From Chloroflexota bacterium (GTDB lineage: Bacteria; Chloroflexota; UBA11872; VXOZ01), in contig OZ244803.1 of assembly GCA_965220045.1 (NCBI GenBank), positions 2,711,901-2,775,900 on the forward strand: a DNA stretch of 64,000 nt, given 5' to 3'. The notes beneath the pieces are model-generated. The model made no database searches. It saw nothing but the letters and a program-made list of their open reading frames with translations, and had not been told where the DNA came from. Positions 1-17,950 of this stretch are shown piece by piece. Each line of letters opens with the position of its first letter. The stretch's first letter is position 1. Position numbers and translations under genes: made by a program.

Positions 1-157
1 GCGGAAGAGCGTGCACATGGCCGCATGTGAGCGGGTGACGTGAGAGGCGCATCACCCGCCACGTGGGAGCAATAACCATCTCTTGCACACACATCCCGTA
101 GTCGGGGCTCACCATCCGTCATCAGAATGTACCATCCGTCGTCTGGGCGCATTATCC

Positions 158-187
158 GTCATTCCCGCGAAAGCGGGAATCCATCTT
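158..187 (+). repeat. Family-A hairpin repeat (gtcattcccgcGAAAgcgggaatccatctt); left terminal inverted repeat of the GIY-YIG unit
   Basis: Perfect 8 bp stem attcccgc/gcgggaat with GAAA loop, read directly. It overlaps the stop codon of the GIY-YIG gene by 2 nt. The same 30-mer recurs about 20 times in the window. Confidence 0.9.
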
Positions 188-473
188 AAATGACTTCGTC
201 GTACACGTCCGCCCACTGTGGATTAGTCTTCTCGATCAACTCAATCTTCCACGCCCGGTTCCACTTCTTCAGCGCCTTCTCCCTCCTGATGGCGCTCTCC
301 ATAGTCTCATGTGCCTCGTACCAAACTAGCCTGTGGACACCGTATTCCTTTGTAAATCCCTCCACAAGGCCATTCTTGTGTTGCCAGACCCTCTGAGCGA
401 GGTTCGAGGTCACGCCGATGTAGAGGGTGCCTTTGGGGTTATTTGCAAGTATGTAGACACATGGTGTTTTCAT
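186..473 (-). CDS. GIY-YIG nuclease family protein (small UPF0213/YhbQ-like). The ORF track extends it to 521, but the likely start is the Met at 471-473 (MKTPCVYIL...)
   Basis: Motifs CVYIL...GTLYIGVTSNLAQRVWQHKNG...REKALKKW are the canonical GIY-YIG signature (GIY = VYI, YIG = YIG, conserved R and E). The frameshifted paralog at 1873-2159 is homologous only from this Met onward. Confidence 0.85.
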   Translation of the reverse strand: MKTPCVYILANNPKGTLYIGVTSNLAQRVWQHKNGLVEGFTKEYGVHRLVWYEAHETMESAIRREKALKKWNRAWKIELIEKTNPQWADVYDEVI

Positions 474-599
474 TACGGTGGTCTCTTCAAGTGTGCTTCC
501 GCTAGTTCTTAACGTTGACATGTGACAATGGGGTTGCCAGTACTTCGCTTATCGGCGAATCACTCCTTTTTGTTGAGGGCCAGCGCCCCACCCAGAGAC

Positions 600-629
600 A
601 AGATGGATTCCCGCTTTCGCGGGAATGAC
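600..629 (-). repeat. Family-A hairpin, inverted orientation; right terminal inverted repeat of the GIY-YIG unit
   Basis: aagatggattcccgctttcgcgggaatgac is the exact reverse complement of the 158-187 repeat. It lies 126 bp beyond the GIY-YIG start codon. Confidence 0.9.
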
Positions 630-865
630 AGACAAGACTAGCACTAGGCAGTATCGCAGGCATGTCCGCCTCATTCCATTTCCTACATGAGCGGCTGGTC
701 CACTTCAACTCTTCCTGGTATGCAAATCGTTCCGTCGACAGTTGCGCCATGCCGTTCATCCAAAGACAACCTTCGGGTGAACGGCCTAATAGCCTATTGC
801 TCGCTTGCCGGAACAGTGGCATTGCCTAGGCGTGACCCTACTGTACGCGGCGACAACTCTTATCC

Positions 866-895
866 GTCATTCCCGCGAAAGCGGGAATCCATCTT
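866..895 (+). repeat. Family-A hairpin (solo left end of a truncated GIY-YIG unit)
   Basis: Identical 30-mer preceded by the conserved flank tcttatccgtcattccc. Confidence 0.9.
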
Positions 896-985
896 AAATG
901 ACTTCGTCGTACACGTCCGCCCATTGTGGATTGGCCTTCTCGATCAACTCAATCTTCCACGACCGATTCCACTTTCCTTGTGCCT
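894..985 (-). pseudogene. 3' fragment of a GIY-YIG nuclease gene (about 30 C-terminal codons)
   Basis: About 90 bp near-identical to the 3' end of the gene at 186-473 (encodes ...HDRFHF...INSIFH...). Homology stops abruptly near 985. Confidence 0.7.
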
Positions 986-1226
986 CTACACCAACATTGG
1001 AACGTCCTGTTGGTCGGTTTAGCCGCCGACGGGTGATCTCTGTCGACCGGAGTACGTTCTCTATGGCCCTCCTCCGGGCCGATAGTGCGGCAATCCCATC
1101 TCTGGACTACTACGAAGGCTCCGCGAAGATGGCGGTCTCACCCCGCAAGCCATCCCGCGTTACAATTAAAACCAGGAATATAGCTTTCCTTGAGTCCATG
1201 ATGAGCCCAACGCGAGAGGAGGCACA

Positions 1227-1616
1227 GTGTCCAATAACGATTCAATTCCCGATGGCTACACGGCCGTTACCCCGTATCTTCTTGTCGAAGGCGCTGCCGG
1301 CTATCTTGACTTCTTGGCAGGTGCCTTTGGCGCCGTTGAGCGTCTGCGCGTCCCCATGCCCCAAGGCGGTATCGGTCATGCCGAGGTCGCGATCGATGGC
1401 GCTGTGCTGATGGTGGCCGATGCTTTCCCGCCGGACTTTCCTGCCACCACATCGCTGCTACACCTTTACGTTGGGGATGTGGACAGCATCCATGCCCAAG
1501 CGGTTGAAGCGGGCGCGACGTCACTGGCCGAACCTTCCGACGAGGAATATGGCGACCGCATGGCCCGCGTCCTCGACCCCTGCGGCAACCAGTGGATAAT
1601 CGCCACGGCGGGCTGA
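1227..1616 (+). CDS. VOC (glyoxalase/bleomycin resistance/PhnB-like) family protein
   Basis: TPYLLVEGAAGYLDFLAGAFGAVE...GGIGHAEVAIDGAVLMVAD... matches the PhnB-like VOC fold pattern. RBS-like GAGGAGG upstream. Confidence 0.75.
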   Translation: MSNNDSIPDGYTAVTPYLLVEGAAGYLDFLAGAFGAVERLRVPMPQGGIGHAEVAIDGAVLMVADAFPPDFPATTSLLHLYVGDVDSIHAQAVEAGATSLAEPSDEEYGDRMARVLDPCGNQWIIATAG

Positions 1617-1825
1617 GAGCAAGGGCCTTGACCGTCTGACCTCATCGAGTTTGGGCCGTGGTGCGGAACCTGCCCAAGAGCGCTTGCAGACCGTAGCTGC
1701 TTTCCTGCCATGCTTTGTGCCCTTCGCTCTCGCATTGAGGCGCGCCGGCTATCCCAGAAATCTACACCAATTCTCTCCCGAGAGAGTTGAGAATTCTATG
1801 CCGCGCCTCGCGCCGCCTCTTATCC

Positions 1826-1874
1826 GTCATTCCCGCGAAAGCTCGCCCCCGCTTGGGGGCGCGGAATCCATCTT
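1826..1874 (+). repeat. Family-A hairpin variant carrying a nested GC-rich palindrome (ctcgcccccgcttgggggcgcg) inserted in the loop
   Basis: gtcattcccgcgaaag-[ctcgcccccgcttgggggcg]-cggaatccatctt. The same kind of insert occurs at 39020-39068 and 41118-41166. Confidence 0.85.
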
Positions 1875-2159
1875 AGATGAATTCGTCGTACAAGTCCGCC
1901 CATTTTGGATTAGCCTTCTCGATCAACTCAATCTTCCACGCCCGGTTCCACTACTTGAATGCCTTCTCCCTGCAAGTAGCGCTTTACATAGTCTCATGCA
2001 ATTCATACCAGACTAACCTGTGAACACCGTACTGCTTCGTAAACCCCTCAACCTATCATTCTTATGCTGCCACACCCGCTGGACGAGGTTGGATATTACA
2101 CCGATGTAAAGGGTGCCATTGGGGTTATTCGCAAGTTTGTAGACGCAGGGCGATTTCAT
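1873..2159 (-). pseudogene. Frameshifted GIY-YIG nuclease paralog
   Basis: Reverse strand translates MKSPCVYKLANNPNGTLYIGVISNLVQRVWQHKND, then loses frame. The 3' end (...EFI*) and the downstream hairpin are conserved with the 186-473 copy. Confidence 0.75.
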
Positions 2160-2285
2160 GCGAGGGTAAAATTCTTACCAAACTGACAAAGAAAGACCCA
2201 TTTGCAGCATAGGCACCACGTTTTGAAGTCAAGTATTGTCTTAGCTTGCCAAGGAGTCACATTGGTCTTTACAGCAACCCAAGAG

Positions 2286-2315
2286 AAGATGGATTCCCGC
2301 TTTCGCGGGAATGAC
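2286..2315 (-). repeat. Family-A hairpin, inverted orientation (right terminal inverted repeat of the degenerate unit)
   Basis: aagatggattcccgctttcgcgggaatgac. It is again exactly 126 bp from the pseudogene start codon, as in the intact unit. Confidence 0.9.
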
Positions 2316-2550
2316 GGACATAAGAAGCTATCTGTAAAGCAGGGCAAGAATCCGCCCTGCCATTCGTAGCGCTAGGGCTCATCCACCGCTCTTTAGCTTG
2401 ATCAACCAAATAGCGCGCCCTTAAGAATCACCATGCCGCTCACCCAGAACTATATTCCGGGTGAACGGCACAGTACCAAGCTCTTATCAATGTTGGCGGC
2501 GGTCTAGCCTAACGTTCGTACGCTACTACCGCACCACACATTCAATCTTT

Positions 2551-3942
2551 CTAGAGTTGGTCCGCCCACTTATTGAGGACCTCTTGCACACGCTCGGCGT
2601 GCTCCTTGTTGGCCTCTTCGGGCGTGATCTCCTTGGCGTAGGCCCTGAACCAAATATCGATGTTGATGCCGATGATCTCATCGTTACCGGGGATAACCGG
2701 CACCCACTTGGCGAGCTCCAATTCTGCCAGGTACGCCTCAGCCTCAGGCACCTGCTCCAGGTAACCGCCGAATGAAGCTGATTGCAGCGCGGGAATGTAG
2801 TCACCGGCGCCAATTGACCAGCGCAGGTTGACGTCCCCACCCAGGAAGAACTCGATGAGGGAGAAGCCGCCATCGGCATTAGCAGCGCCCTGGGGCTGTG
2901 CCAGTGCCCAGCCACCCTGGTAGTTGGTTGCTATGCCATCCGGCGGCAGCGGCATGGGCGCCGACTTGAAGTTGATTGCCGATTCCCACGCCTTGCGATA
3001 CGTGGCGGCATACCAGTGACCGCCGATCATCTGCGAGACGCCACCGGTGGTGAAGGCATCGTTGCGGTCGGGCCGCTGCTGGCCCAGGAATTCATCGATC
3101 CGCACGTTGCCGCCGCACAGGTCGACCATGTTGATCATGAACTTGAGCGCGGTTACGCCCATGTCATTGTCAAAGTTGACCGTCTTGTTGTCGGGCGAGA
3201 GATATTCGCCGCCCTGCTGCCAGAAGTGGATGTACCACTGCAAGCCGACCGGCGGATTGCCTGGAGGGCCGGTGGAGTAGCCGAGCCGCTCGATCACGCC
3301 GTCTTGTCCCGCTTTGTGGAGCTTCAGCGTCGCCGATTCCAGCTCGTCCCAAGTGGCGGGCGGACTTTCCGGATCGATGCCCGCTTCTATGAAGTGGTCT
3401 ACGTTAAACATGTACGTGCGGGCGTCAGTATGCAGTCCAACACCGTAGATGTTGCCCTTCCACGTGCAGTCATCCCGCAGCTTGGGCCAGATGTCGTCCC
3501 AGCTAAACGCCGCCGTCGCCTTGATGTGTTCGTTCAGGTTCAAGAGGAACCCCGGTGCGGAAAGCTGGCCCGCCAAATAGCGGTCCATGTAGAAGACGTC
3601 CGGCGGAGCGCCGGCCGCTGCCGCGGTAATGAGCTTCTCTTTGCTGCCGCTGCCGATATGCGTCGGCGTGAGCGCCAGGTCGACGTCGGGATTCGCTTCC
3701 TGGAACTCGAGCAGAAGATCGTTGCCAATGTGGCCTTCCAACAAGAAGTCCTGGTACGTCCAGAACTTGACTTCGGAGGGGCCCATCATCTCTTCGGACT
3801 TCGCTTCGCCCATGTCATCATCGGCCGGAGCATCGTCCGCCGGGGCCATGGCGCCTCCCGTGGCGCAGGCGGCAAACAGGGCCGCGCCGCTAAACGCGCC
3901 CGCCGTGCCGATAAGCATTCTGCGTGTCAATCTTGCTTCCAT
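2551..3942 (-). CDS. ABC transporter substrate-binding lipoprotein, family 1 (carbohydrate)
   Basis: Lipobox ...LFAACATGG, then an Ala/Pro/Asp-rich linker, then a body typical of extracellular solute-binding protein family 1. About 60% identical to the SBP at 9817-11196. Confidence 0.85.
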   Translation of the reverse strand: MEARLTRRMLIGTAGAFSGAALFAACATGGAMAPADDAPADDDMGEAKSEEMMGPSEVKFWTYQDFLLEGHIGNDLLLEFQEANPDVDLALTPTHIGSGSKEKLITAAAAGAPPDVFYMDRYLAGQLSAPGFLLNLNEHIKATAAFSWDDIWPKLRDDCTWKGNIYGVGLHTDARTYMFNVDHFIEAGIDPESPPATWDELESATLKLHKAGQDGVIERLGYSTGPPGNPPVGLQWYIHFWQQGGEYLSPDNKTVNFDNDMGVTALKFMINMVDLCGGNVRIDEFLGQQRPDRNDAFTTGGVSQMIGGHWYAATYRKAWESAINFKSAPMPLPPDGIATNYQGGWALAQPQGAANADGGFSLIEFFLGGDVNLRWSIGAGDYIPALQSASFGGYLEQVPEAEAYLAELELAKWVPVIPGNDEIIGINIDIWFRAYAKEITPEEANKEHAERVQEVLNKWADQL

Positions 3943-4217
3943 CGGTCTCCTCCTTCGTACGGAACCGCACTAAGAATCCACGCATTGATATGCCAAACAG
4001 TTTACCACACACCCTCTGGTGCCATACCTGCGTTGGCGCAGGTAGTATAGCATGGGCTTTCGCCAATTGCCAAGACATCTTAGTGCGCACCACTCACAGC
4101 AAATGAAGAACCCAAATGTCACCCCGAACGGAGTGAGAGGTCTAGGATGCCCGTTAACAGAGAATGCGCTATCACGGCCCACGCGCCACAACCGCAGGGG
4201 CAAGCGTTCATACACCC

Positions 4218-4245
4218 GTAGGGGCACGATATATCGTGCCCCTAC
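4218..4245. repeat. Family-B 28 bp perfect palindrome gtaggggcacgatatatcgtgcccctac
   Basis: Perfect inverted repeat read directly. 4 copies in the window (4218, 9172, 18026, 39677), all intergenic. Confidence 0.9.
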
Positions 4246-4254
4246 GGGTGCGCA

Positions 4255-5769
4255 CTACAGCGGATCGGCAAACGTGCGCGTGTCCTTGTCCGGGCCGTCG
4301 TAGTCGTCCAGCCAGTTCATTTCGCCGGTCAGCGGCCAGTGGTAGGGCTCCGGCGGGCGCACGTGACGGGTCCACCGCACCATGAGCTCTAAATCGGCGG
4401 CCTTTTGCCGCAGGCGGTGGGCGATGCGATCGGGGTTCCAGTCCTTGTGCACCTCCGGCAGCAGTTGCTCCTGAATGTGCCGGTACTGCGGATCGGCGGC
4501 CAGGTCGGTGGTCTCCATGGGGTCATCGGCCAAATTGAAGAGTTGGGTCGGCTCACCCAGGTAGTAATTCAACTTCCAAGGGCCGCGCCGCACCATGCGC
4601 TGAAAACGGCCGTGGGGTGCGTATTCGGCCAGCGCCAGGTCTTTCCAGTGCGCATCTTCACCGCGCAGCGCCGGCAGCAGCGACTCGCCCCGCCCCTGCG
4701 GCAGCGGCTCCGCGCCCATTGCGTCCACCATGGTGGCGACCACGTCCACCGTGCTCGCCGCCTGCGCAAAGCGCGTGCCCGCCGGCAGCTTGCCGGGCCA
4801 GGAAAGTATGGCCGGTATGCGGATAGACCCCTCATAGAATGTCTGCTTGAACCAAAGGCCGTGCTCGCCCACTTGGTCGCCGTGGTCCGAGGTATAGATG
4901 ACCAAGGTTTTGTCGGCCAAACCGTTGGCCTCCAGGGCAGCGAGAATCTGCCCGATCATGGCGTCCATGCGGTCCACCAGCGCCCAGTAGGCCGTGCGGG
5001 AGCGCATGATTTCGTCCTCGGTTGCCTTGTCCAGACCGCACTGCTCCCGCCACCAGCCGATGTAGGGATGCGGGTCGCTGGGCGGTTCCGGGTGGGTGGG
5101 CGGCGGCACCTTGCCCCAGTAGCGGTCGTAGTCCGGTTTGCGCGCCACGTACGGCTGGTGCGGCAGCAAATAGCCCACCGTCAGGCAGAAGGGCTCTTTG
5201 AGCACGCCTGCCCGCCGCTGCCAGCCGAAGCGGTTGAGCGCGTCCACCGTTGCGGCGGTGGTATCCTCGTCAATCACCTCGTAGCCGCTCTGGCCGGCGC
5301 CGGAACGTTCCAGGGCCACGTGGTAAGGGCCAGCCGTGCCGCTGCCCAGCATGCCCAGGTCTATGCCGGTGCCGCCGGGATAATTGGGGGTGGCGTCGCC
5401 GCCAAGGCGTTCGGCAAAGCCGTGGTGTTGGTCCGCGCCCACGAAGTGCATGCGTCCAATGAGCTTCGGACGATAGCCGGCGGCGCCCAGGGCGTGGGCA
5501 AACGTGGGAATGCCGTGATCGAGGATGTGGCGGTTGTCCCAGGTCTCGATGTCGGTGGGGTACTGCCCCGTCATGTACGACATGCGTGCGGGCACGCAAA
5601 GCGGCGCGGTGCAGTAGAGGTTGTCCAGCACCACACCGCCTTCAGCAAGACGGTCCAGGTGCGGCGTCTGCACCACCGGATCGCCGTAGCAGCCGGTGAC
5701 CATGGGATTGTGTTGATCGGAAATGATGAAGAGCAGATTTGGACGTTGGGCGGTGGAATCTTTAGACAT
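4255..5769 (-). CDS. Sulfatase (arylsulfatase family). Start is probably the Met at 5767-5769 (MSKDSTAQRPNLLFIISDQHNP...)
   Basis: LLFIISDQHNP...GCYGD...TPHLDRLAEGGVVLDNLYCTAPLCVPARMSYMTGQYP contains the C-x-P-x-R-x4-TG formylglycine motif (C-V-P-A-R). The longer ORF to 5928 lacks sulfatase homology. Confidence 0.85.
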   Translation of the reverse strand: MSKDSTAQRPNLLFIISDQHNPMVTGCYGDPVVQTPHLDRLAEGGVVLDNLYCTAPLCVPARMSYMTGQYPTDIETWDNRHILDHGIPTFAHALGAAGYRPKLIGRMHFVGADQHHGFAERLGGDATPNYPGGTGIDLGMLGSGTAGPYHVALERSGAGQSGYEVIDEDTTAATVDALNRFGWQRRAGVLKEPFCLTVGYLLPHQPYVARKPDYDRYWGKVPPPTHPEPPSDPHPYIGWWREQCGLDKATEDEIMRSRTAYWALVDRMDAMIGQILAALEANGLADKTLVIYTSDHGDQVGEHGLWFKQTFYEGSIRIPAILSWPGKLPAGTRFAQAASTVDVVATMVDAMGAEPLPQGRGESLLPALRGEDAHWKDLALAEYAPHGRFQRMVRRGPWKLNYYLGEPTQLFNLADDPMETTDLAADPQYRHIQEQLLPEVHKDWNPDRIAHRLRQKAADLELMVRWTRHVRPPEPYHWPLTGEMNWLDDYDGPDKDTRTFADPL

Positions 5770-6057
5770 ACGCAAACTCCTTGACAAAACCGAAGTGAAT
5801 TGAGCGCGTGCGGCAAGACGCGCCAAAGTTGCCGCACGTCGCGTCCGCCGGAGCCGTTCTCTTGAGGTCGATTGTAGCATCGGCTCGAGCCGCGAGCCGC
5901 GCAAGCGCGGCGGACAGGCGAAGATCATTCGATAAACCGTTCGCCCATCCGCCGCGCTCTCGCCGACTTGCGGGTTTATGTGGACTCTTTGCCAAGGCGC
6001 CTGCGCGTCACGCTACGCGCAGTTTGTGATCGCCGCACACTTCCGGCACATGCGTTC

Positions 6058-7422
6058 CTAGCCGCCCAGGTTGCTGAGGAACGTATCCATGATGGTCTGA
6101 AGCTCTACCTCGGTATCCCGCAGCGTCTCCTCGATGGTCTTCTCGCCGCCAAGCGCGGTCGGCACCACCCTGAGCGTAGCCCCAAGCATCTGGGGCGCGC
6201 CGGGTGCGGGGATGACGAAACGCCGGTTCTCCATCATCTCCACCGCAATCTGCAAGAAAGGATCGTTCTGGTGGTACGCCTCTTGGCGGGAAACGTCCGG
6301 CCGGATCGGCAAGGTGTTGAATGTGTGTGACCAACGGACGTTCACGTCGCCGCTGCCGAAGTGCTCCAGGAACTTCCAGGCGTTCTCCGGCTGCTCGCTC
6401 TGGGTGGTCAGGATCCAGGTGTGGCACCCGCCGTAGGTCATGTGGCGGCCGTCCGGCGGCTTGGGCCAATGGGCCACGTGATATTGCACGTCCGGCACCG
6501 TCCGTTTCATGAGGCCGTGGAGGGTACTCGGCCAGTAGAGATTGGCCACGTGCCCGTCGTAGAAGAGCAAGTGCGGACGGGTATCCTTGCGGAAGTCTTC
6601 AAGCGCCTGCCAGCCGCCCTGCATTTCGTAGATCTTCATGAGCCAGCGCAGACCCTCGATGCCCTCCGGTGTATTGATAGTCACTTTGCTCCCATCATCG
6701 CTGAGCGTCTCGCCGCCCAACTGCCACATGGGCACCATCCAGATGCTGTTGATCTGCCAGAGGGGCGCGAACGCAACCAGCTCGGTCGTATCCCCGCTGA
6801 CGCGCGTGAGCTTGGGGATCACGGCCTCAAGCTCTTCCCAGCTTTCCGGTGGGTTCTCTACGTCCACGCCGTTCTCTAGATAGACGTTGTCATTCATGAA
6901 AACCGGCCGCACGTCCGGACCGAACGGCATGCCCTGGATTTGGCCCTGCCAGGTGAGATCGCGCTGCAGCGACGGCCAGATGTCCTCCTTGCGCACCACG
7001 TCCGACGCGGCCATGAAGGGATCGAGCGGTTGCCCGATTTCCAAGGCGGCGAGGGTCTGGGCCTGCCACGAGCCGGATTGTCCGATGTCCGGGCCGCTGC
7101 CGGCGGCCATGGCGGCCTGTAGCTTGGTGACGCGGTTGCCCTCGGGAATGGTCGGGTCAACCGTAAGCCCGGGGTTCTGCTCCTCGAACTCCGCCACGAC
7201 CTCGCCCCCCAGCCCTTCGCTGAGAGTCCAGAAGGGGACGGTGAAGATCGTGATCGTGTACGGCTCCGGCGCGGGCGCCTCCGTGGGAGCAGGCTCCGCC
7301 GCGGGCTTCTCTTCCATCGTCTCCGTGGGCACCACGGCGGTGCCGCACGCCGCCAGAAGGCCGACCGCTCCGGTCAGCACGGCGCCGCGTAAGACTGCTC
7401 TTCGACTGGTCTTGATGCTCAT
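6058..7422 (-). CDS. ABC transporter substrate-binding lipoprotein, family 1 (divergent paralog)
   Basis: Signal/lipobox MSIKTSRRAVLRGAVLTGAVGLLAACGT, then an Ala/Pro/Glu linker and an SBP-1 body. Confidence 0.8.
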   Translation of the reverse strand: MSIKTSRRAVLRGAVLTGAVGLLAACGTAVVPTETMEEKPAAEPAPTEAPAPEPYTITIFTVPFWTLSEGLGGEVVAEFEEQNPGLTVDPTIPEGNRVTKLQAAMAAGSGPDIGQSGSWQAQTLAALEIGQPLDPFMAASDVVRKEDIWPSLQRDLTWQGQIQGMPFGPDVRPVFMNDNVYLENGVDVENPPESWEELEAVIPKLTRVSGDTTELVAFAPLWQINSIWMVPMWQLGGETLSDDGSKVTINTPEGIEGLRWLMKIYEMQGGWQALEDFRKDTRPHLLFYDGHVANLYWPSTLHGLMKRTVPDVQYHVAHWPKPPDGRHMTYGGCHTWILTTQSEQPENAWKFLEHFGSGDVNVRWSHTFNTLPIRPDVSRQEAYHQNDPFLQIAVEMMENRRFVIPAPGAPQMLGATLRVVPTALGGEKTIEETLRDTEVELQTIMDTFLSNLGG

Positions 7423-7643
7423 GGTCGTCTCCTTAATGCTTGCTCAAAAGTGTCTCCAGCGAGGCGTTAGGAACACGCACTGGTTTGCACCGCTATGGAA
7501 TCCACACACCCTATGCATGGTGTCGCTAAGACGCGAGCGGCTGCTCTTACTCCTTTCTTCTCGTGTTTCCCACGATTCGCCGCACTGTGACCTCAAGACG
7601 CGTACACAGGCCGGTCTCTCCGGCCAAACACCGCGCCTGCGCG

Positions 7644-9071
7644 CTAGTCCTCCGTGATCCGCTGGACGTAGCGGCGCAATTCCAATTCCAAAGCGTCGCC
7701 CACGTCGGCGTGCTCAGCCAGCACGTTTTGCTGGTCGTAGGGATCATCGGGCCGGTGGTAGAGTTCGGGTTCTGTCCGTTCCAGCCCATTGAGGAAATAG
7801 AGGTAGCGCCACTCGTGGTTTTGGATTGACCAGCAGCCCTGGTAGTGGCCCGAATAGGCGTAATCGCGCACGCTCGCCGCCTCCCCGCGCAGCAACGGCA
7901 GCACGCTGACGCCGTGCATCGCTACGTCCTTGCGTCCCACCACCAAATCTTGCGGGAAAGTGCCGGCGGTTTGCGGCGCGATGTACGCCAACGGCAGCGG
8001 CGTGGCAATGTCCAGCGCGTCCAACACCGTCGGCATAAGGTCGGTGTGCTGCACCAGCGCCTCCACGCGCGGCGGCGGCTCCGGCATGGATGCCCGCATT
8101 TCCGCCGGCAGCTTGAGCACCCAGGGCACGCGCACGAGTTCCTCGTAGTTCCACGGACGCGCCTTGCGCACGATGCCGTGCTCGCCGAACGGCTCGCCGT
8201 GGTCGCTCGTCCACATGATCAGGGTATCGTCGTAGATGCCCAGATCACGAATGTGGTCGAGCAGAATGCCCACCCATTTGTCCACGTACGTTACTTTACC
8301 CGCGTAAAGTTCCATCGTGCGTTGGAGTTCCGCCGGCGTGATGTAGCCCTCTACCATTCCCGGCACCGGATCGATGAGCTCCTGGCCGCTGTAGCCGGGG
8401 GTCTTGTACATGGACCAGAAAGGTTCCGGCGGGTCCCACGGCTCGTGGGGGTCGAAGTAGTCCACCCACAGGAAGATCTTGTCGCGCACGCCTTTCTCCT
8501 TCACCGCGCGGTCCAGCCACTGCATGGCGACTTTCGTCACCTGCGGCGTGAAGAAGTCTTCCTCGACCTTGAAATGAGCGCGGTTGCGCAGGTACTGCAC
8601 GTAGTACTCTTCCCAGAGCGCGTCAGTGTCGTCGCCCCGCAGCCGGTGCCAGCGGCTGAGGTCTACCGGCACATCCTCCGTCACCCACGGGTCAGTTGAG
8701 TTGCCGCGCACGAATTCAACCGTGCTAAACCCGCGGCCGCAATTGAAGACCGGCTTGTGCAGGTGGAAGGTATCGGTGATGAGCGCCGAGGTATAGCCTT
8801 TGTCCCAGAGGACTTCCGCTAGCAGGTAGTCGTCCAGCTTAAAGGGCTGCCAGGGACGGAACGGAAAGTGCGTGCGGCCTGTCCAGAAGACCGTCCGCGC
8901 CGGCACCGTGGGCATGCTGTCGGCGTAGGCGTGCAAGAAAGCCGTGCCGTCGGCGGCGAGGCGCTCCAGGTTGGGCGTTGCCACCTTCGTGCCGTGGTAG
9001 TCGTAACAGAGCGGGTCCAGGCTGGTGTGGTCGGCGCGGAGACTATCGGTGCAGATGACGATGATATTCAT
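7644..9071 (-). CDS. Sulfatase-family (alkaline-phosphatase superfamily) protein with Thr at the formylglycine position
   Basis: IIVICTDSLRADH...TPNLERLAADGTAFLHAYADSMPTVPARTVFWTGR. It aligns to the FGly motif of the neighbouring sulfatase but reads T-V-P-A-R instead of C-V-P-A-R. Confidence 0.75.
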   Translation of the reverse strand: MNIIVICTDSLRADHTSLDPLCYDYHGTKVATPNLERLAADGTAFLHAYADSMPTVPARTVFWTGRTHFPFRPWQPFKLDDYLLAEVLWDKGYTSALITDTFHLHKPVFNCGRGFSTVEFVRGNSTDPWVTEDVPVDLSRWHRLRGDDTDALWEEYYVQYLRNRAHFKVEEDFFTPQVTKVAMQWLDRAVKEKGVRDKIFLWVDYFDPHEPWDPPEPFWSMYKTPGYSGQELIDPVPGMVEGYITPAELQRTMELYAGKVTYVDKWVGILLDHIRDLGIYDDTLIMWTSDHGEPFGEHGIVRKARPWNYEELVRVPWVLKLPAEMRASMPEPPPRVEALVQHTDLMPTVLDALDIATPLPLAYIAPQTAGTFPQDLVVGRKDVAMHGVSVLPLLRGEAASVRDYAYSGHYQGCWSIQNHEWRYLYFLNGLERTEPELYHRPDDPYDQQNVLAEHADVGDALELELRRYVQRITED

Positions 9072-9171
9072 GGAAGAGCACTATCCTTTACGTGGACCAA
9101 CTACCGTTCTTCGTCCCAGGGCCGCCCCACGGCAGCCTGCGCGACGTTTGCGTCAGCCTCTGTTTTCGAAG

Positions 9172-9199
9172 GTAGGGGCACGATATATCGTGCCCCTAC
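9172..9199. repeat. Family-B 28 bp palindrome
   Basis: gtaggggcacgatatatcgtgcccctac, identical to the 4218 copy. Confidence 0.9.
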
Positions 9200-9321
9200 G
9201 TCACGTGGGCAAATGTCCCTACGTCATGCAGTCAATTTCCCAATGTCATGGCTTAAAATAAATAGGCCTTGGCCCCGCTAGGAGACCCCCCTTGCAACTG
9301 CGGCTATAGGGGCAAGTCTTA

Positions 9322-9354
9322 CCCCCTCTCCTGGGGGAGAGGGCCGGGGTGAGG
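9322..9354. repeat. Family-E repeat, short form (ccctctcctgggggagagggccggggtgaggg)
   Basis: Corresponds to the two ends of the 80 bp family-E element joined together. Confidence 0.7.
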
Positions 9355-9444
9355 GCGTTCTGGTTTGCCTAGCCCCTCAAACTGAGGAACCTATGTGCAA
9401 TCGTTCCAAAACGCTCATAACTCGTCTGCTTTGCAGTGTTTTCA

Positions 9445-9522
9445 CCCTCACCCCCGTATCATCCGATACTGTGTATCGGCGTACGGGGCAGGCTCTAACC
9501 CTCTCCCTCGTGAGAGAGGGGA
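9445..9522 (+). repeat. Family-E repeat, long form (about 80 bp)
   Basis: ccctcacccccgtatcatccgatactgtgtatcggcgtacggggcaggctctaaccctctccctcgtgagagagggga. About 85% identical to 43645-43725. Confidence 0.8.
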
Positions 9523-9629
9523 CTACCTCGCTGCGGCGAGGGTTACGCAAAGGTCTCCGCAGGGAGTGATTCCCTCACCTCAACAACACTGCATTGACGG
9601 GCGCGCGTGTGCGCTATGCGGGAAACCGC

Positions 9630-9792
9630 GCAGGTTACAAACCTACGCTACCCCAGGTTACAGACCCTCGCTGCCGCAGGTTACAGACCTATGCTACCCC
9701 CAGGTTGCTCACCTTCGCCGCCGCAGGTTACAAACCTGCACTACCCCAGGTTACAGACCTTCGCTACCGCAGCATGCAAACCTTCGCTACCC
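9630..9792 (+). repeat. Tandem array of 7 abutting 23 bp units (caggttacaRacctNcgctaccc), derived from the family-C palindrome
   Basis: The units abut with no spacers, so this is not a CRISPR array. Unit consensus matches the solo family-C elements gcaggttgcaaacctgcgctaccgg. Confidence 0.85.
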
Positions 9793-9816
9793 ATCTATAC
9801 TAGCGTGCTGAAACCA

Positions 9817-11196
9817 CTACAGAGATTCAGCCCACTTATCCAGGACGGCCTGCACTTCCGCTTCTTTCTGCGCCATCGCCTCTTCCGGCGTCACCGCGCG
9901 CGTGGAAGCGTTTACCCACGCTCTTCTATCAATTCCGAGGATTTCATCGTTACCGGGAATCACCGGCACCCACTTGGCTACCTTAATTTCATCCATGACA
10001 GGTATGGCATGGGGCGAGGAGCTTAGAAACTCGTCGGATCGCGCGATGGATTCCAGCGCCGGAACGAGACCGAGCGCATCCGTCCACGCAAGCTGGCTCT
10101 CTTTGGTCATGAGATGCTCGATGAAGCGGAATGCCTGGTCTTGGTGCCCGCCGACTTGCGGCATAGCGATCGACCAGCCGCCTAGGTAGTTCGTCCGCAG
10201 CCCGCCCTCAGGAATCGGCAGACCGCCCACGCCCCAGGTCACAGACGCGCCCCAGTTTTGGTAGCGCCGCGTGGTGCTGGTACCGTTATGGACCATCATG
10301 GAGACACGGCCCACGGTAAAGTGATCGTTCTGTGCGGGATTCGCGTTGCCCAGCGCCGCGGTAATGCCCTCCAGACCGCCTTGCAAGTCCAGCAAGCCCA
10401 GCATGAACTTGAGTGCGTTGATACCGGCATCGTTGTTGAAGTTCGGCTTGCGGTTGTCGGGCGTCAGGTACTCGCCGCCGAGTTGCCAGAACCAGATGTA
10501 CCACTGCAAAAAGTGCGGCGGATTGCCGAACGTCGGTGTGAACCCAATGCGCTCCACCGCGTCGCCGCTGGTCTTGTAGAGCCGCGAGGCCGCGGACTCC
10601 AACTCGTCCCAGGTGCCCACCGGCTCCTCGGGGTCCAGGCCGATTTCGATGAAGTGCTCTTTATTCCAATGGAACGCACGGCCGTCGCAATGCAATGGCA
10701 CGGCGTAGACCTTGCCCTTCCACGTCACATCCTCGCGGAGCTTCGGCCAAAAGTCCTCCCACACGAAGGTGCTGGTTGCATTCACACGCGGAGTGAGGTC
10801 GGCCAGAAACCCCGCCGCGGAGAATTGACCGGCCAGGTAGCGGTCCATGTAGAAGACCTCAGGCGGCGATCCGGCCGCAGCCGCAGTGATGAATTTCTCC
10901 CTGGCGCGCAAGCCTACGGGGATGGGCTGGACTTCGACGTTGATGGCCGGGTTTTGTTCGCGAAACCGCTCTACAATGTTGGCGGCCGGGTGGTCCGGGG
11001 TAGCGAAGACGCTGGCGGCCCAAAAGCTGATAGTCACCGGCTCCGCTGGGGCCGGTGCGGACTCTTCTGCCGCAGGCGCATCGCCTTCAGTCGTGGGCGC
11101 GGCCGCGGGCACCGCTCCGCACGCGGCGAGCACGAGCCCTCCACTCATGACACCGGCGGTTGCGAACAATCTTCTGCGGGTAACGGTCGTCGCCAT
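9817..11196 (-). CDS. ABC transporter substrate-binding lipoprotein, family 1 (carbohydrate)
   Basis: MATTVTRRRLFATAGVMSGGLVLAACGA lipobox, Ala/Pro/Glu linker, clear paralog of 2551-3942. Confidence 0.85.
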   Translation of the reverse strand: MATTVTRRRLFATAGVMSGGLVLAACGAVPAAAPTTEGDAPAAEESAPAPAEPVTISFWAASVFATPDHPAANIVERFREQNPAINVEVQPIPVGLRAREKFITAAAAGSPPEVFYMDRYLAGQFSAAGFLADLTPRVNATSTFVWEDFWPKLREDVTWKGKVYAVPLHCDGRAFHWNKEHFIEIGLDPEEPVGTWDELESAASRLYKTSGDAVERIGFTPTFGNPPHFLQWYIWFWQLGGEYLTPDNRKPNFNNDAGINALKFMLGLLDLQGGLEGITAALGNANPAQNDHFTVGRVSMMVHNGTSTTRRYQNWGASVTWGVGGLPIPEGGLRTNYLGGWSIAMPQVGGHQDQAFRFIEHLMTKESQLAWTDALGLVPALESIARSDEFLSSSPHAIPVMDEIKVAKWVPVIPGNDEILGIDRRAWVNASTRAVTPEEAMAQKEAEVQAVLDKWAESL

Positions 11197-11496
11197 CGCT
11201 CTTCCTCCCGTCTTGAAAGTTTGACGGACTTAACCATATTGAAGATATTGCTATGGATTTAACCAATAGTCAATAGCTTTCAAGGGGATTCTACTGTGGG
11301 TATGGCGAATAGGGAGGTGATTGGCAAGGTTTGAGCGCGGCGGAGCGCTCTTGAATGCCCGCCTTGCTCCCGGTCCATGGGGCGCAGACCCGCTAACCCG
11401 CGCTCGGAGGCCGCAATGGCCGTGCCGCAGGAGGCGCCGGAGTCGATCAGATTCCTATAGGAAGACTGCCTGGAGTGCGAAACATTGGACCGTCGC

Positions 11497-12069
11497 TTAA
11501 AAGGGCATATTGAATGAGAAAAGCTCCCGCAGGACGGCCCAGATGCTGCTATAGATCGCGCCCACCCAGAAGATGCCGTTGAGCGTGGTGCCGACAACGA
11601 CGAGCGTATACGCGCGCTTGCCCGTAATGCCCATAAGCCAGATGAGCGGCACGCCGGCCATCGTGGGGCCGGAGAGGGTGTAGACCAGGAGGACGACCAG
11701 GTTGCGCCGTCTCTCCGTAGCCTCGACAAATCTGCGAATCTTCTCCAGGCGAGCCGTCTTGGCGCGAATCCAATCGGAGAGATCGAGTTCGAGCAGGAGC
11801 AAGTAGAGCAACGCGCCGTTCAGGACGATCATCACCAGGATGGTGGCGGTTGTGGCGACGAAGCCATTGTAGCGCAGGATGAGATAGTTCGAAAAGATCG
11901 TAACGATGATATCGATGGACGGCCACAGCACCAGCGTGACCAACCGCCGGAGATACTTCCTCACGGTGAGAGGATCGACCTCACGCGGGGAGACGCGGTT
12001 GACGAATTTCGTCACGCGCCTCTCGATTGTGCGGTTGTCCGGCTGGGGTTCGGTGGACGTTGCGGACAT
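11497..12069 (-). CDS. Hypothetical integral membrane protein (about 4 TM helices)
   Basis: Hydrophobic helices only. No recognisable family motif. Confidence 0.4.
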   Translation of the reverse strand: MSATSTEPQPDNRTIERRVTKFVNRVSPREVDPLTVRKYLRRLVTLVLWPSIDIIVTIFSNYLILRYNGFVATTATILVMIVLNGALLYLLLLELDLSDWIRAKTARLEKIRRFVEATERRRNLVVLLVYTLSGPTMAGVPLIWLMGITGKRAYTLVVVGTTLNGIFWVGAIYSSIWAVLRELFSFNMPF

Positions 12070-12147
12070 AGAATTCAGACCGTTAATTGCAAAGTGAGTA
12101 GTCTCGCAGGGCCGCGCATAAAACCGGTCTACCGCTCGCCGGCCTCG

Positions 12148-13473
12148 TCAGCGCCCGACAACCGTATCCATGCCGACCAGCGGCACGTTGGCAATAAGCG
12201 AGGCCTCGAGGCTGAGGGCCCGCAGGTCTTCAACTTCCAGGTCATGGACGTTTGCTTTGCCGCACGCACGCGCGAGCAATTGAATTTCCTGCGTCAACGT
12301 GGCAATGAAGTTCGCCAGGCGCAGCGCCGCTTCCTCAAATCCGGGGATCTCCGCCATTGCCCCCCGGGTCATGGCAGCGCGCTCTTCATCATCGGCGGCA
12401 GCGTCGTCAACGTGTTCGGGTGATCCATCTTGTTCGAATTGCGCCGTGACGTCCCGCGACCACGGTTCCAGCGAGACCAGCGCGGCGGTGCCGATGGAGA
12501 CGGCGTCTACGCCCAAGGCCAGCGCCTTGGCTACATCGGCACCGCTGCGGATGCCGCCGCAGAGGATCAAGCCGACCTCGTCTTCAAGACCCAACTCTTC
12601 CAACGCGCGCCGGGCCTGGCACACCGCCGCGATACCGGGAACACCCGTGTTCTGGTTCAGGACTGCCGGACCGGTGGAAGCGCCGGCTTCCATGCCCTCC
12701 ACCGTGATGATGTCCGCGCCGGCTTTGGCCGCCAATAGCACGTCGTCATAGACGTGCGCGGCGCTGATCTTGACAATGATGGGCACGCGCCAGTCTGTGG
12801 CCTCCCGCAGCTCTTCCACCTTCTTGGGGAGGTCGTCCGATCCGACCCAGTCCGGGTGCCGCGTCGGCGCGTGTGAGAGGCGGGAATACGCCGTTTCCGG
12901 CAGTGTCCCCGCGGACCGCGCTCCATCCCTGTCTAAACGAGACGGCATGCCGATACTTGGACTAAGGCCGCGCACGCTCACGAGCTCGATCACGTCGGCC
13001 TGGAGCATGTGACGCGGATTGAAGTCAACGCGGCTCGGCAGCACTTCGTAGGAAAGCATTCCGGCGAATTCTCGCTCCTCCGCCAGCATGCCGCCATACC
13101 CGGTGGTGTAGACAATGCCGGCGTGGGCCGAACCGTACGCGAGCGCCGCCCGCACCACCGGCGACAGCAGTTTGGCGCCCATGCCGGCGATCGTCACCGG
13201 CGTGCTGAGCACCAGCGGCTCCCCCGCAAACCGCGTCCCCAGGGTCGTGGCGGTCGTGCACTGCTCGTAGAAGGCTTCCAACGGCACGCGGCTGAGCGCG
13301 CACGGAATCAAAGTGAGATCATCGAACGTAGGAAACGCCCGCGACCGAACCGCCCGCGCTACGCGGCCGTTTCCCGCAGCGCTGGACTCTGCCTCCGGGG
13401 CCGCTACCTGAGCGGGATCGGATCCAGCATTCCTGTTCGCCTGCGACTCCATTTCCCGAGCTAGCCTTCCCAA
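12148..13473 (-). CDS. Glutamate synthase FMN-binding domain protein (GltB domain-2-like / MgsC-like)
   Basis: IIVKISAAH...AGADIITVEGMEAGASTGP...GVP...LILCGGIRSGADVAKALALGVDAV is the glutamate-synthase central-domain signature. Confidence 0.85.
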   Translation of the reverse strand: MGRLAREMESQANRNAGSDPAQVAAPEAESSAAGNGRVARAVRSRAFPTFDDLTLIPCALSRVPLEAFYEQCTTATTLGTRFAGEPLVLSTPVTIAGMGAKLLSPVVRAALAYGSAHAGIVYTTGYGGMLAEEREFAGMLSYEVLPSRVDFNPRHMLQADVIELVSVRGLSPSIGMPSRLDRDGARSAGTLPETAYSRLSHAPTRHPDWVGSDDLPKKVEELREATDWRVPIIVKISAAHVYDDVLLAAKAGADIITVEGMEAGASTGPAVLNQNTGVPGIAAVCQARRALEELGLEDEVGLILCGGIRSGADVAKALALGVDAVSIGTAALVSLEPWSRDVTAQFEQDGSPEHVDDAAADDEERAAMTRGAMAEIPGFEEAALRLANFIATLTQEIQLLARACGKANVHDLEVEDLRALSLEASLIANVPLVGMDTVVGR

Positions 13474-14189: not shown

Positions 14190-14213
14190 GATGCCTATTC
14201 AGGATTTGGCGAT

Positions 14214-17891: not shown

Positions 17892-17950
17892 CAGGTCGTC
17901 GTTTCAGATAGTTCATCCGTCGTTGTTTAAGATTGTTCATCCAAAGGACT

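Follow-up and report, generated by a model that had tools for sequence, protein, structure and literature searches.

Alternating genes for orphan sugar-binding lipoproteins and cytoplasmic sulfatase-fold hydrolases in a Chloroflexota genome

Introduction

What can three sugar-binding lipoproteins do when their genes alternate with those of two sulfatase-like enzymes and no transporter gene accompanies them? The question arises from a Chloroflexota contig of 3.37 Mb (genome ~3.4 Mb), from which a window of 64 kb, that is, the whole stretch of DNA analysed, was studied together with related genomes and contigs. The initial annotation described five minus-strand genes alternating between substrate-binding proteins (SBPs) and sulfatase-like proteins, and both the gene order and the Pfam assignments agree with it.

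Results

Gene order and genomic setting

The array consists of five consecutive minus-strand open reading frames, given here in the direction of reading:

9817-11196, minus strand: SBP3, 459 aa, family-1 (CUT1, cluster D) sugar-binding lipoprotein with Tat signal and lipobox
7644-9071, minus strand: SULF2, 475 aa, cytoplasmic sulfatase-fold hydrolase with T55-V-P-A-R59 at the nucleophile position
6058-7422, minus strand: SBP2, 454 aa, family-1 sugar-binding lipoprotein with Tat signal and lipobox, distant paralogue of SBP1 and SBP3
4255-5769, minus strand: SULF1, 504 aa, predicted cytoplasmic formylglycine-type sulfatase of the choline-sulfatase-like branch
2551-3942, minus strand: SBP1, 463 aa, family-1 sugar-binding lipoprotein with Tat signal and lipobox

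The SULF1 frame is open to 5928 (ORF 4255-5928); the start at 5769 is preferred because gene callers give 504 aa and a ribosome-binding site (AAGGAG) precedes this ATG. Numbered from the left, ORFs 2 and 4 match the Pfam Sulfatase family PF00884 (E 5.6e-46 and 7e-33, respectively), and ORFs 1, 3 and 5 match SBP_bac_1 or SBP_bac_8. The SBP and sulfatase families have five members among ~55 genes, all of them consecutive and alternating, and a post hoc estimate puts the probability of such alternation from random gene order at about 1e-6.

Spacers of 160-750 nt, poorly conserved in sequence, lie between the genes, and a comparison of the five upstream regions found no 10-mer common to at least four of them. 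These long, poorly conserved spacers and the lack of a common 10-mer thus give no sign that the genes are co-transcribed or share an operator, and the three SBP genes are apparently transcribed separately. Cytoplasmic GH38 glycosidase genes lie ~3 kb downstream of the array, and the 7.4 kb past the left window edge contain genes for a glyoxalase, a GIY-YIG protein, an acetyltransferase, two GH38 proteins and a DUF418 protein. The window showed no gene for an FGE or anSME maturase that could act on SULF1.

Sugar-binding lipoproteins

The N-termini of SBP1 (MEARLTRRMLIGTAGAFSGAALFAAC), SBP2 (MSIKTSRRAVLRGAVLTGAVGLLAAC) and SBP3 (MATTVTRRRLFATAGVMSGGLVLAAC) all show a twin-arginine motif followed by a lipobox (..TRRMLIG..LFAAC, ..SRRAVLRG..LLAAC and ..TRRRLFA..VLAAC, respectively). 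With their carbohydrate-type bodies, these features bear out the earlier assignment of all three to the family-1 sugar lipoproteins. The Pfam matches are SBP_bac_1 for SBP1 (1.2e-26), SBP_bac_8 for SBP2 (2e-22), and both SBP_bac_8 (1.2e-29) and SBP_bac_1 (1.2e-27) for SBP3. Two of the SBPs had been put at about 60% identity; the closest pair, SBP1 and SBP3, was measured at 45% over 464 aa, and SBP2 shares 26-27% identity with either.

The best PDB matches of the SBPs by sequence or fold are binders of di- and oligosaccharides or the sulfoquinovose binder SmoF. SmoF, which binds sulfoquinovosyl glycerol, matches the sequences of SBP1 and SBP3 and, in the case of SBP3, the fold as well. The AlphaFold model of SBP3 (pLDDT 85.8) is most similar to oligosaccharide-binding SBPs, with target-normalised TM scores of 0.81-0.88. 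SBP2 matches sugar SBPs in the PDB and, more weakly, UgpB, which is also its sole NCBIfam match (E 9e-11).

Two different sulfatase-fold enzymes

SULF1 is predicted from its sequence to be a genuine CxPxR sulfatase, with choline sulfatase as its nearest relative. Its motif reads LCVPAR, C58-V-P-x-R62 is invariant in A3, and the best PDB match is the choline sulfatase of S. meliloti (6FNY, E 2.4e-70, aligned residues 6-429). Homologues with 55-61% identity form a very large branch in Poribacteria, Chloroflexota and Planctomycetota. Like BetC (SulfAtlas S1_12; PDB 6FNY), SULF1 is cytoplasmic and has the C-x-P-x-R motif, but it scores 335.8 bits against the choline-sulfatase model TIGR03417, below the cut-off of 433, and has no betA, betB or betI neighbours.

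The SULF2 sequence begins MNIIVICTDSLRADH. TxPxR is present in nearly all (~117) of its 120 nearest homologues, as it is in all 35 distant relatives with a readable motif; T55, D9, H209, D290, H291 and K303 show no variation in A1. The PDB folds that best match the SULF2 model (pLDDT 87) are those of S1 sulfatases and of phosphonate monoester hydrolases (~20% identity, TM ~0.67, Foldseek E ~1e-25). SULF2 shares with these enzymes the fold and the metal- and ester-binding residues D9, H209, D290, H291 and K303, but differs in its invariant Thr in place of Cys or Ser and in having only ~20% identity to any solved structure. Within the alkaline phosphatase superfamily, a threonine nucleophile typically marks the members that transfer phosphoryl groups, such as NPP, LtaS and EptA. 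Given the invariant threonine at the nucleophile position, SULF2 is classed by motif as a member of a large TxPxR branch and not as a formylglycine sulfatase. According to the SulfAtlas authors, threonine cannot give formylglycine and such PF00884 members are not to be named sulfatases; SULF2-type sequences are left out of the sulfatases in that database (PMC5066984).

Neither enzyme has a signal peptide, each starting straight at its catalytic domain, and both would thus act only after import, which makes small ligands more likely than large sulfated oligosaccharides. The earlier suggestion of a system for binding and desulfating sulfated oligosaccharides fits the carbohydrate-type SBPs and the invariant CVPxR of SULF1, but "desulfating" overstates the case in view of the TxPxR motif of SULF2.

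Elsewhere, a CUT1-like SBP gene occurs within 10 kb of six of 80 SULF1-family metagenome loci and six of 80 SULF2-family genome loci. SBPs account for 2/92 immediate same-strand neighbours of SULF2 homologues, the remainder being heterogeneous (AP_endonuc_2, MR_MLE, GFO_IDH_MocA, HAD). Complete permease-permease-SBP operons contain SULF2 homologues in L028 (Thermotogae) and L066, and in L058 the homologue lies near one. The SBPs that adjoin SULF homologues elsewhere showed no specific relation to SBP1-3.

Missing transporter genes

Pfam finds no BPD_transp_1 or ABC_tran gene within the 9-kb array, as the initial annotation had stated, and no CUT1 permease or ATPase gene is present in the ~71 kb that run from 7.4 kb beyond the left window edge to the right edge. 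That annotation had named permease and ATPase genes immediately outside, on the same strand, as an observation that would count against it; none was found in the 7.4 kb read beyond the left edge, and its reading is therefore not refuted on this ground. The sole ABC transporter in the window (ORFs of at least 180 aa) is an Opp/Dpp-type operon (22912-29371, plus strand), which includes a family-5 SBP of its own and is unrelated to the array. CUT1 permease and ATPase genes are likewise absent from the flanks of the array in four related genomes (L002, L004, L008 and L091), so the membrane components are, as proposed, not encoded at the array.

Distant SBP homologues (28-38% identity) lie in SBP-permease-permease loci in five of five cases (L006, L090, L173, L174 and L175), none of which has an ATPase gene, indicating that unlinked components are already normal in this transporter family. 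The orphan state of the array SBPs is derived, their distant homologues being found in these ordinary permease loci. The GH38 protein adjoining one distant SBP homologue is 24% identical to that near the array, a family-level link only.

Conservation in related genomes

The five-gene order is kept in at least five related Chloroflexota genomes or contigs. Upstream of the array in L002, LeuRS and AhpC-like genes replace a glutamate-synthase-like trio, and the array is intact. The five genes show dN/dS of 0.06-0.15 at dS 0.33-0.81 (SBP1, 0.07-0.11; SULF1, 0.06-0.09; SBP2, 0.09-0.11; SULF2, 0.06-0.10; SBP3 against its orthologues, 0.12-0.15), and the array is under purifying selection. Among the relatives, local tandem duplications around the array comprise two or three GH38 genes and, in one relative, a second SBP1 copy with 81% identity. 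In related contigs, singleton Tat-lipobox SBP genes adjoin genes of unrelated cytoplasmic enzymes (for example, Amidohydro_2 in L008 and L171). Outside this clade the association between SBPs and enzymes is not conserved.

Intergenic elements

The spacers and the flank of the array contain the following elements:

2431-2473, minus strand: terminator-like 20-bp hairpin, ~80 nt past the SBP1 stop codon
4044-4073, minus strand: promoter-like site TTGGCA-18 nt-TATACT (with TG), ~100 nt upstream of SBP1
4213-4250, no strand: perfect 38-nt hairpin enclosing the 29-nt palindrome, beginning 4 nt past the SULF1 stop codon
9172-9200, no strand: perfect 29-nt palindrome GTAGGGGCACGATATATCGTGCCCCTACG, a REP-like dispersed element
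9445-9507, no strand: dispersed intergenic repeat copy, 89% identical over 63 nt to 43651-43712 and probably the family E of the initial annotation
9629-9815, no strand: tandem array of seven 23-nt units, directly after the SBP3 stop codon

The promoter-like stretch with its leader is the only well-conserved intergenic DNA in three genomes. The palindromes at 4218 and 9172 and the seven-unit tandem array are present as first reported, the seven units spanning 9631-9792. The 29-nt palindrome has four copies in the window (4218, 9172, 18026 and 39677), those at 4218 and 9172 being identical, and is present or absent depending on the related genome. The 23-nt unit (gene-strand consensus GTAGCGAAGGTYTGTAACCTG, with a short palindrome inside) has 6, 3, 1 and 1 copies at the same site in relatives and occurs singly at 35436, 35616, 42379 and 61263 in the window. 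The description of the gaps as filled with repeats applies to two of the four internal gaps; those at 5770-6057 and 7423-7643 contain none. These repeats are dispersed genome-wide families, which are not specific to the array and vary among strains with the same gene order.

Discussion

We somewhat favour the view that the array is a conserved, lineage-specific cluster whose orphan SBPs feed a translocator encoded elsewhere, with cytoplasmic de-esterification of the imported sugars. SBP1-3 would each capture, on the outer face of the membrane, a small esterified (sulfated, possibly phosphorylated) sugar or glycoside. Since the SBPs are exported and the enzymes cytoplasmic, a transporter between the two sides of the membrane is logically required, and genes for a CUT1 permease pair and ATPase at another genomic site may provide the complex to which the SBPs dock. 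After import, SULF1 (formylglycine) and SULF2 (threonine nucleophile) would strip the ester groups; further processing of the products might fall to the cytoplasmic GH38 glycosidases. What is inferred here is that the translocator is shared, which class of ligand is bound and that each SBP is linked to its neighbouring enzyme.

In CUT1 (TC 3.A.1.1) sugar importers of monoderm bacteria, the ATPase is unlinked and shared (MsiK/MsmK type). The array SBPs have the same family and fold, but here the permease pair is missing as well. The SmoF/sulfoquinovose importer for a sulfonated sugar and UgpB/UgpQ for glycerophosphodiesters resemble the array in combining a CUT1 SBP for an anionic esterified or sulfonated small carbohydrate with cytoplasmic processing; they are, however, encoded together with their own permeases, and the likeness is at the family level (20-22% identity). 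Orphan SBP genes that lack an adjoining permease or ATPase and lie beside genes of the ligand pathway, with several SBPs presumed to use one translocator, are described in PMC8938411 and PMC3173086. The array shares with these both the absence of adjacent permease and ATPase genes and the position beside genes of a ligand-using pathway, but differs in that three CUT1-type sugar SBPs alternate strictly with cytoplasmic sulfatase-fold esterases and that an entire clade carries the orphan state as a fixed trait.

The initial annotation attributed the array to repeated, repeat-mediated duplication of a single SBP-plus-sulfatase module, which we consider highly improbable. SBP1 and SBP3 are indeed paralogues, identical palindromes lie in two gaps, and the tandem SBP1 copy in one relative indicates that duplication happens here; this sole recent duplication seen, however, involved an SBP alone. 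SULF1 and SULF2 are only 26% identical, which does not support recent module duplication, and differ in the nucleophile residue. The two fall into separate large families, and each has relatives in other phyla (55-67% identical) that are far closer to it than the two are to each other. SBP2 is also distant from the other SBPs, and the repeats occur far from the array and vary in genomes that share the gene order. A non-transport role of the SBPs, such as surface signalling receptors, or a block of decaying ABC operons that have lost their permeases, would explain the lack of nearby permeases, and SBP scaffolds have been co-opted for sensing (PMC8938411; PMC11113362). We nevertheless regard either as improbable, as no gene for a sensor kinase, chemoreceptor or regulator adjoins the array, the outgroup homologues nearest to these proteins are ordinary SBPs of transporters, and intact reading frames with low dN/dS indicate that the genes are not pseudogenes.

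It is unlikely, though less so, that the five genes are mere neighbours with unrelated substrates in a variable region, rich in repeats, that gathers accessory genes, their order shared through close kinship in a genome rich in singleton SBP and sulfatase-fold genes. The restriction of the association to this clade, the repeat-laden spacers with separate promoter- and terminator-like sites, the lack of a common upstream motif, the other singleton SBPs beside unrelated enzymes and the plasticity marked by tandem duplications are in line with such a reading. Against it, strict alternation of all five family members in ~71 kb would be very unlikely among unrelated genes, the block is kept whole where the genes upstream of it differ, and SULF2 homologues occur inside CUT1 operons in other phyla. 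A rather better candidate, although still doubtful, retains the architecture with small sulfate or phosphate esters as ligands (choline-O-sulfate, glycerophosphodiesters or sulfoquinovosyl glycerol, not host or algal sulfated oligosaccharides) for sulfur, phosphorus or osmolyte scavenging. The closeness of SULF1 to choline sulfatase, a small alkyl sulfate enzyme (6FNY; TIGR03417, 336 bits), the phosphoryl-transfer type of nucleophile in SULF2, the UgpB match of SBP2 and the SmoF matches of SBP1 and SBP3 point this way, as do the cytoplasmic enzymes, whose substrates must fit an ABC importer. On the other hand, SULF1 falls under the BetC equivalog cut-off with no bet genes nearby, the best SBP folds are binders of di- to penta-saccharides, and GH38 genes near the array and sugar-catabolic loci around distant SBP homologues speak for sugars.

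Under the favoured reading, in which orphan SBPs supply imported sugar esters to cytoplasmic hydrolases, a shared translocator would serve the lipoproteins of this lineage. Rather than a new kind of system, the array is a variant, specific to this lineage, of the known "orphan binding protein" arrangement.

Organization of the gene array

Five consecutive minus-strand genes, recognized already in the initial annotation, occupy positions 2551-11196. They encode three sugar-binding lipoproteins (SBP1-3) separated by two sulfatase-type enzymes (SULF1 and SULF2).

Genes of the array
9817-11196, minus strand: SBP3, Pfam SBP_bac_1/SBP_bac_8
7644-9071, minus strand: SULF2, Pfam Sulfatase (PF00884)
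6058-7422, minus strand: SBP2, Pfam SBP_bac_1/SBP_bac_8
4255-5928 (longest ORF; start placed at 5769), minus strand: SULF1, Pfam Sulfatase (PF00884)
2551-3942, minus strand: SBP1, Pfam SBP_bac_1/SBP_bac_8

The longest ORF of SULF1 carries 53 extra residues compared with its homologues. Because the gene callers of the source contig give a protein of 504 aa and the sequence AAGGAG is located ahead of the ATG at 5769, the start was set at this position. In NCBI the array proteins are named "ABC transporter substrate-binding protein" and "sulfatase" from Chloroflexota bacterium, and the source organism belongs to a Chloroflexota MAG lineage with the GTDB representative OZ242272.1. SBP1 and SBP3 share 45% sequence identity, less than the 60% estimated at first, and SBP2 is 26-27% identical to each of them. 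SULF1 and SULF2 share 26% identity.

Directly upstream of the array is a split glutamate-synthase-like trio (GATase_7, GXGXG and Glu_synthase/FMN; 12148-15155, minus strand), whose layout we take to resemble that of the N-methylglutamate synthase mgsABC. Beyond the trio, a tRNA gene is found on the other strand (15406-15477, plus). Elsewhere, the window encodes two large DUF3604 proteins (15648-17891 and 61704-63641, both plus), one of which has a weak match to CehA/McbA metallohydrolases, as well as a (2R)-phospho-3-sulfolactate synthase of sulfur-organic metabolism (ComA, 43777-44604, plus; E 2.9e-93) not adjacent to the array. An insertion sequence with an integrase-core (rve) transposase gene is located far from it (55580-56587, plus).

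Substrate-binding proteins

The three SBPs score 66-104 bits with the SBP_bac_1/SBP_bac_8 profiles (curated cut-offs 26-27), which places them in the family-1 (CUT1, cluster D) binding proteins. Inspection of the sequences by eye revealed in all three an RR motif followed by an L-x-A-A-C lipobox, in line with their earlier description as family-1 sugar lipoproteins. Because of the twin-arginine motif and the lipobox cysteine, SBP1-3 are predicted to be exported and lipid-anchored.

Every match of SBP1-3 in sequence searches of the PDB was a CUT1 carbohydrate binder; UgpB and the sulfoquinovosyl-glycerol binder SmoF were matched more weakly. The AlphaFold model of SBP3 (pLDDT 85.8) superimposed on PDB structures with target-normalised TM scores up to 0.88, and its top 40 matches were oligosaccharide- or sulfoquinovose-binding proteins or maltose-binding protein. 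The nearest folds were those of binders of sophoro-oligosaccharides, mannobiose/mannotriose, cyclic maltosyl-maltose and sucrose/maltotriose, and SmoF was also matched. Thus, SBP1-3 are predicted to be sugar-type binding proteins with the two-lobed sugar-SBP fold, based on the model for SBP3 and on sequence alone for SBP1 and SBP2. Four homologues of SBP3 (P0027, P0031, P0037 and P0039; 744-803 aa) combine SBP_bac_1/8 and BPD_transp_1 domains in one polypeptide, and these SBP-permease fusions represent the opposite extreme to the orphan SBPs of the array.

Sulfatase-type enzymes

SULF1 contains the motif L-C-V-P-A-R, which matches the (C/S)-x-(P/A)-x-R signature of S1 formylglycine-dependent sulfatases, and its residues C58, P60 and R62 are invariant across 29 family members (alignment A3). 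Its closest solved structure is the choline sulfatase from S. meliloti (6FNY, E 2.4e-70), but with the choline-sulfatase BetC equivalog TIGR03417 it scored 335.8 bits, below the cut-off of 433.45. No betaine-synthesis genes (betA, betB) or choline-sulfate transporter were found beside SULF1, its neighbours being CUT1 SBPs, and no GMC oxidoreductase or betaine-aldehyde dehydrogenase is encoded near it in the window or the left flank. The SULF1 branch is very large (over 2500 matches), with members from Poribacteria, Chloroflexota and Planctomycetota sharing 55-61% identity. No formylglycine maturase (FGE or anSME) is among the ORFs annotated in the 64-kb window.

SULF2 has T-V-P-A-R at the corresponding site, which does not conform to the sulfatase signature. 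The Thr residue is found in about 117 of the 120 closest homologues, is invariant in an alignment of 27 sequences (A1), and also occurs in all 35 distant relatives with a readable motif, down to 33% identity, including proteins from Bathyarchaeia, Thermoprotei, Hadarchaeota and Thermococci. The residues that bind the metal and the ester are conserved in the same alignment (A1). The AlphaFold model of SULF2 (pLDDT 87) matched the folds of S1 sulfatases and phosphonate monoester hydrolases (TM about 0.67, about 20% identity). According to the SulfAtlas authors, Thr cannot give formylglycine, and such PF00884 members should not be regarded as sulfatases unless there is evidence (PMC5066984). From the Thr motif, the distant fold matches and this statement, SULF2 is best described as a putative ester hydrolase with a sulfatase fold. 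Of the sulfatase and the sulfatase-like enzyme initially proposed, SULF1 (CxPxR) is thus retained as a sulfatase, whereas SULF2 (TxPxR) lacks a formylglycine motif.

SULF1 begins with MSKDSTAQRPNLLFIISDQHN, whereas SULF2 starts straight at the catalytic core (MNIIVICTDSLRADH). Because neither has a signal peptide, both enzymes are predicted to be cytoplasmic.

The SULF2 family (window 7644-9071 and homologous loci L008-L087) has over 1500 matches and was present in at least 597 stretches of GTDB species genomes. The family is distributed over many bacterial phyla and a number of archaeal classes, and its proteins, cytoplasmic and of sulfatase fold, share an invariant T-x-P-x-R motif at the formylglycine site. 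No characterised Thr-type sulfatase-fold enzyme or SULF2-family member was found in the PDB or in the literature searched.

Absence of membrane components

A Pfam scan of every window ORF of at least 180 aa identified a single set of permease and ATPase genes, an Opp/Dpp-type operon on the other strand (22912-29371). This transporter was rejected as a partner of the SBPs, as it belongs to a different ABC family and has its own family-5 SBP. No MalF/MalG-type permease pair is present beside the SBPs from -7.4 kb to +53 kb, or beside the array in four related genomes. On the 3.37-Mb source contig, the region left of the window encodes a GIY-YIG protein, an acetyltransferase, two GH38 enzymes and a DUF418 protein; permease genes beyond this edge, which would have made the array an ordinary operon, were not found. 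The reported lack of CUT1 permease and ATPase genes therefore extends across 71 kb. A 190-aa hydrophobic protein encoded after the glutamate-synthase-like trio (11497-12069, minus strand) was also dismissed as a membrane component, having no Pfam match, being too small for an ABC permease and being absent upstream of the array in the related genome L002.

SBP1-3 are thus orphan SBPs, whose genes are intact and under selection and have no cognate membrane components nearby. All five examined loci of distant SBP homologues (28-38% identity) have the order regulator-SBP-permease-permease, so the orphan state of the clade represented in the window is derived. None of these five loci has an ATPase gene, which indicates that it is already common for this SBP family to rely on unlinked components.

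A related genome (L008, 17095-19773) and two freshwater metagenome contigs that are nearly identical (L171, 12867-16048, and L170, 4375-7556) carry singleton family-1 SBPs with a Tat-lipobox signal, which adjoin an Amidohydro_2 gene and have no permease in their vicinity. Two ORFs of 300-320 aa that follow the L171 SBP were considered as overlooked permeases, but Pfam identified them as DUF1775 and CopC. These cases hint that the pairing of an orphan SBP with an enzyme may be more widespread.

Conservation and genomic context

The five-gene order is kept in related genomes or contigs (L002/L003, L004, L008 and L091) and is fragmentary in L089. In L002 the array is intact although the upstream neighbours are different genes, and L004 has an additional tandem copy of SBP1 (81% identical). 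All five genes showed dN/dS values of 0.06-0.15 at dS of 0.33-0.81, indicating that no array gene is decaying. L089, a 9.9-kb linear contig from the same sample, has truncated SBPs and a sulfatase split in two (163 + 354 aa), reflecting either a degraded strain variant or poor assembly quality.

The searches for gene context used an SBP profile made from the sequences of this analysis and jackhmmer seeded with the two permeases from L006, the distant locus with an SBP of 38% identity. CUT1-like SBPs were found within 10 kb at 6/80 genome loci of the SULF2 family (permeases at four), and SBPs at six of the 80 metagenome loci of the SULF1 family (permeases at one). The immediate same-strand neighbours of SULF2 homologues were heterogeneous sugar-catabolic genes, with SBPs in 2/92 cases. 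These low frequencies show that the SBP-sulfatase linkage is not general. The SBPs beside SULF1 and SULF2 homologues elsewhere were not accepted as orthologues of SBP1-3, with at most 25% identity or short matches only. Two loci (L028 from Thermotogae and L066) have a SULF2 homologue inside a complete permease-permease-SBP operon, linking the Thr-type enzyme, at least in some lineages, with substrates that enter through CUT1 importers.

Downstream of the array, 3 kb from SBP1 and on the same strand, an acetyltransferase gene is followed by two tandem genes of the GH38 alpha-mannosidase family (source contig L001, 14698-20346, left of the window), which are 85% identical and encode no signal peptides; L091 has three such genes (14210-21392). 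They share about 24% identity with the GH38 protein by the SBP of L006, a link at the family level only, and were not considered its orthologues.

Intergenic regions and repeats

The intergenic gaps were initially described as filled with repeats, which holds for two of the four internal gaps; the other two have none. The 29-nt palindromes are present at 4218 and 9172 but are not specific to the array, as they recur at 18026 and 39677. Similarly, the tandem array of seven 23-nt units is located at 9631-9792, but four further sites of the window carry single units, and the number of units varies across genomes (7, 6, 3, 1, 1). The intergenic element at 9445-9507 recurs at 43651. These repeats are dispersed REP-like intergenic elements and not array features.

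The intergenic DNA is poorly conserved except for a promoter-like TTGGCA-18-TATACT sequence and leader upstream of SBP1. An Rfam scan of positions 1-16000 (E ≤ 1) returned only the tRNA at 15406-15477 and sub-threshold noise, with no riboswitch or known RNA in the gaps. No 10-mer (up to one mismatch, either strand) was shared by at least four of the five 200-nt upstream regions as a potential operator. The sequence GGGTGTGTGG, noticed by eye ahead of SBP1 and SBP2, was discarded as an operator, since it is not conserved in the orthologous regions.

A 33-nt repeat, TCCGTCATTCCCGCGAAAGCGGGAATCCATCTT, brackets each of three copies of a small GIY-YIG nuclease gene (150-2320), one intact (186-521, minus strand) and two degraded. 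It is scattered through the whole window (also 17951, 33312, 39052, 46049, 48456, 55358 and 57790-57945) and at 57832-58001 forms a tandem of two 85-nt units.

Proposed function of the array

Orphan SBPs that use the membrane components of another system are established (Thomas 2010), including MppA with OppBCDF and the carnitine/betaine-binding proteins CaiX and BetX, and the simplest reading is that the array follows this model. Because the SBPs are predicted to be outside the cell and the enzymes inside, a connecting transporter would be required if they are functionally linked. On balance, the most likely mechanism combines three ligand-specific orphan SBPs and cytoplasmic SULF1 and SULF2 with a CUT1 translocator encoded elsewhere. 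Each SBP would feed its own ligand, a small esterified sugar or glycoside, to this permease pair and ATPase. After import, SULF1 and SULF2 would de-esterify it, and the cytoplasmic GH38 enzymes may then hydrolyse the products. In this scheme the shared translocator, the class of ligand and the pairing of SBPs with enzymes are inferred, while the gene identities, topology signals, lack of permeases across 71 kb, conservation, selection and derived orphan state have been shown.

Within the same architecture, and overlapping with this mechanism, the ligands may be small sulfate or phosphate esters instead of oligosaccharides, as suggested by the kinship of SULF1 with choline sulfatase, the Thr nucleophile of SULF2 and the UgpB and SmoF matches of the SBPs. 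We regard this as possible but rather doubtful. It is unlikely that the genes are mere neighbours in a plastic, repeat-rich region. The association has no wider conservation and there is no common upstream motif, but all five family members are strictly clustered and alternating, and the block remains intact across a changed neighbourhood. That the SBPs have non-transport roles or are decaying remnants is quite improbable, given the selection on the genes and the absence of sensor genes. Least credible is the repeat-mediated duplication of an SBP-sulfatase module suggested in the initial annotation, which is contradicted by the low identities between SULF1 and SULF2 and between SBP2 and the other two SBPs, as well as by the dispersed distribution of the repeats.

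A broader, speculative reading that we consider improbable joins the mechanism of shared import with a new enzyme class. SBP genes would be uncoupled from permease genes in a hub-and-spoke CUT1 system, in which one translocator serves many modules, each SBP being encoded beside the enzyme processing its ligand (SBP-esterase in the array, SBP-amidohydrolase in L008 and L171). SULF2 would represent an ancient class of cytoplasmic Thr-nucleophile enzymes with a sulfatase fold, acting on sugar sulfate or phosphate esters without formylglycine maturation. This class would be large, and its members come from many bacterial phyla, Bathyarchaeia, Thermoprotei and other Archaea.

The widespread, highly conserved and cytoplasmic family of Thr-type "sulfatases" is the most interesting by-product of this analysis. 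Public databases annotate SULF2 and over 1500 related proteins as "sulfatase" or "arylsulfatase A-like", though these proteins are unable to form formylglycine, and since they carry this label, the "sulfatase" counts in symbiont genomes are inflated.

Orphan SBPs and shared ABC components are already established, as is the abundance of sulfatases in host-associated Chloroflexota and Poribacteria. The strict interleaving of SBPs and enzymes without permeases is a lineage-specific variant of the orphan-SBP arrangement and does not overturn the current understanding. If the proposed mechanism is correct, the substrate range of one sugar importer would be widened by added SBPs, each encoded beside a de-esterifying enzyme. 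Judging from the Poribacteria relatives and the sample names, these bacteria probably live in the microbiomes of sponges or other marine hosts, where the array would offer a compact means of exploiting host or algal sugars that are sulfated or phosphorylated.
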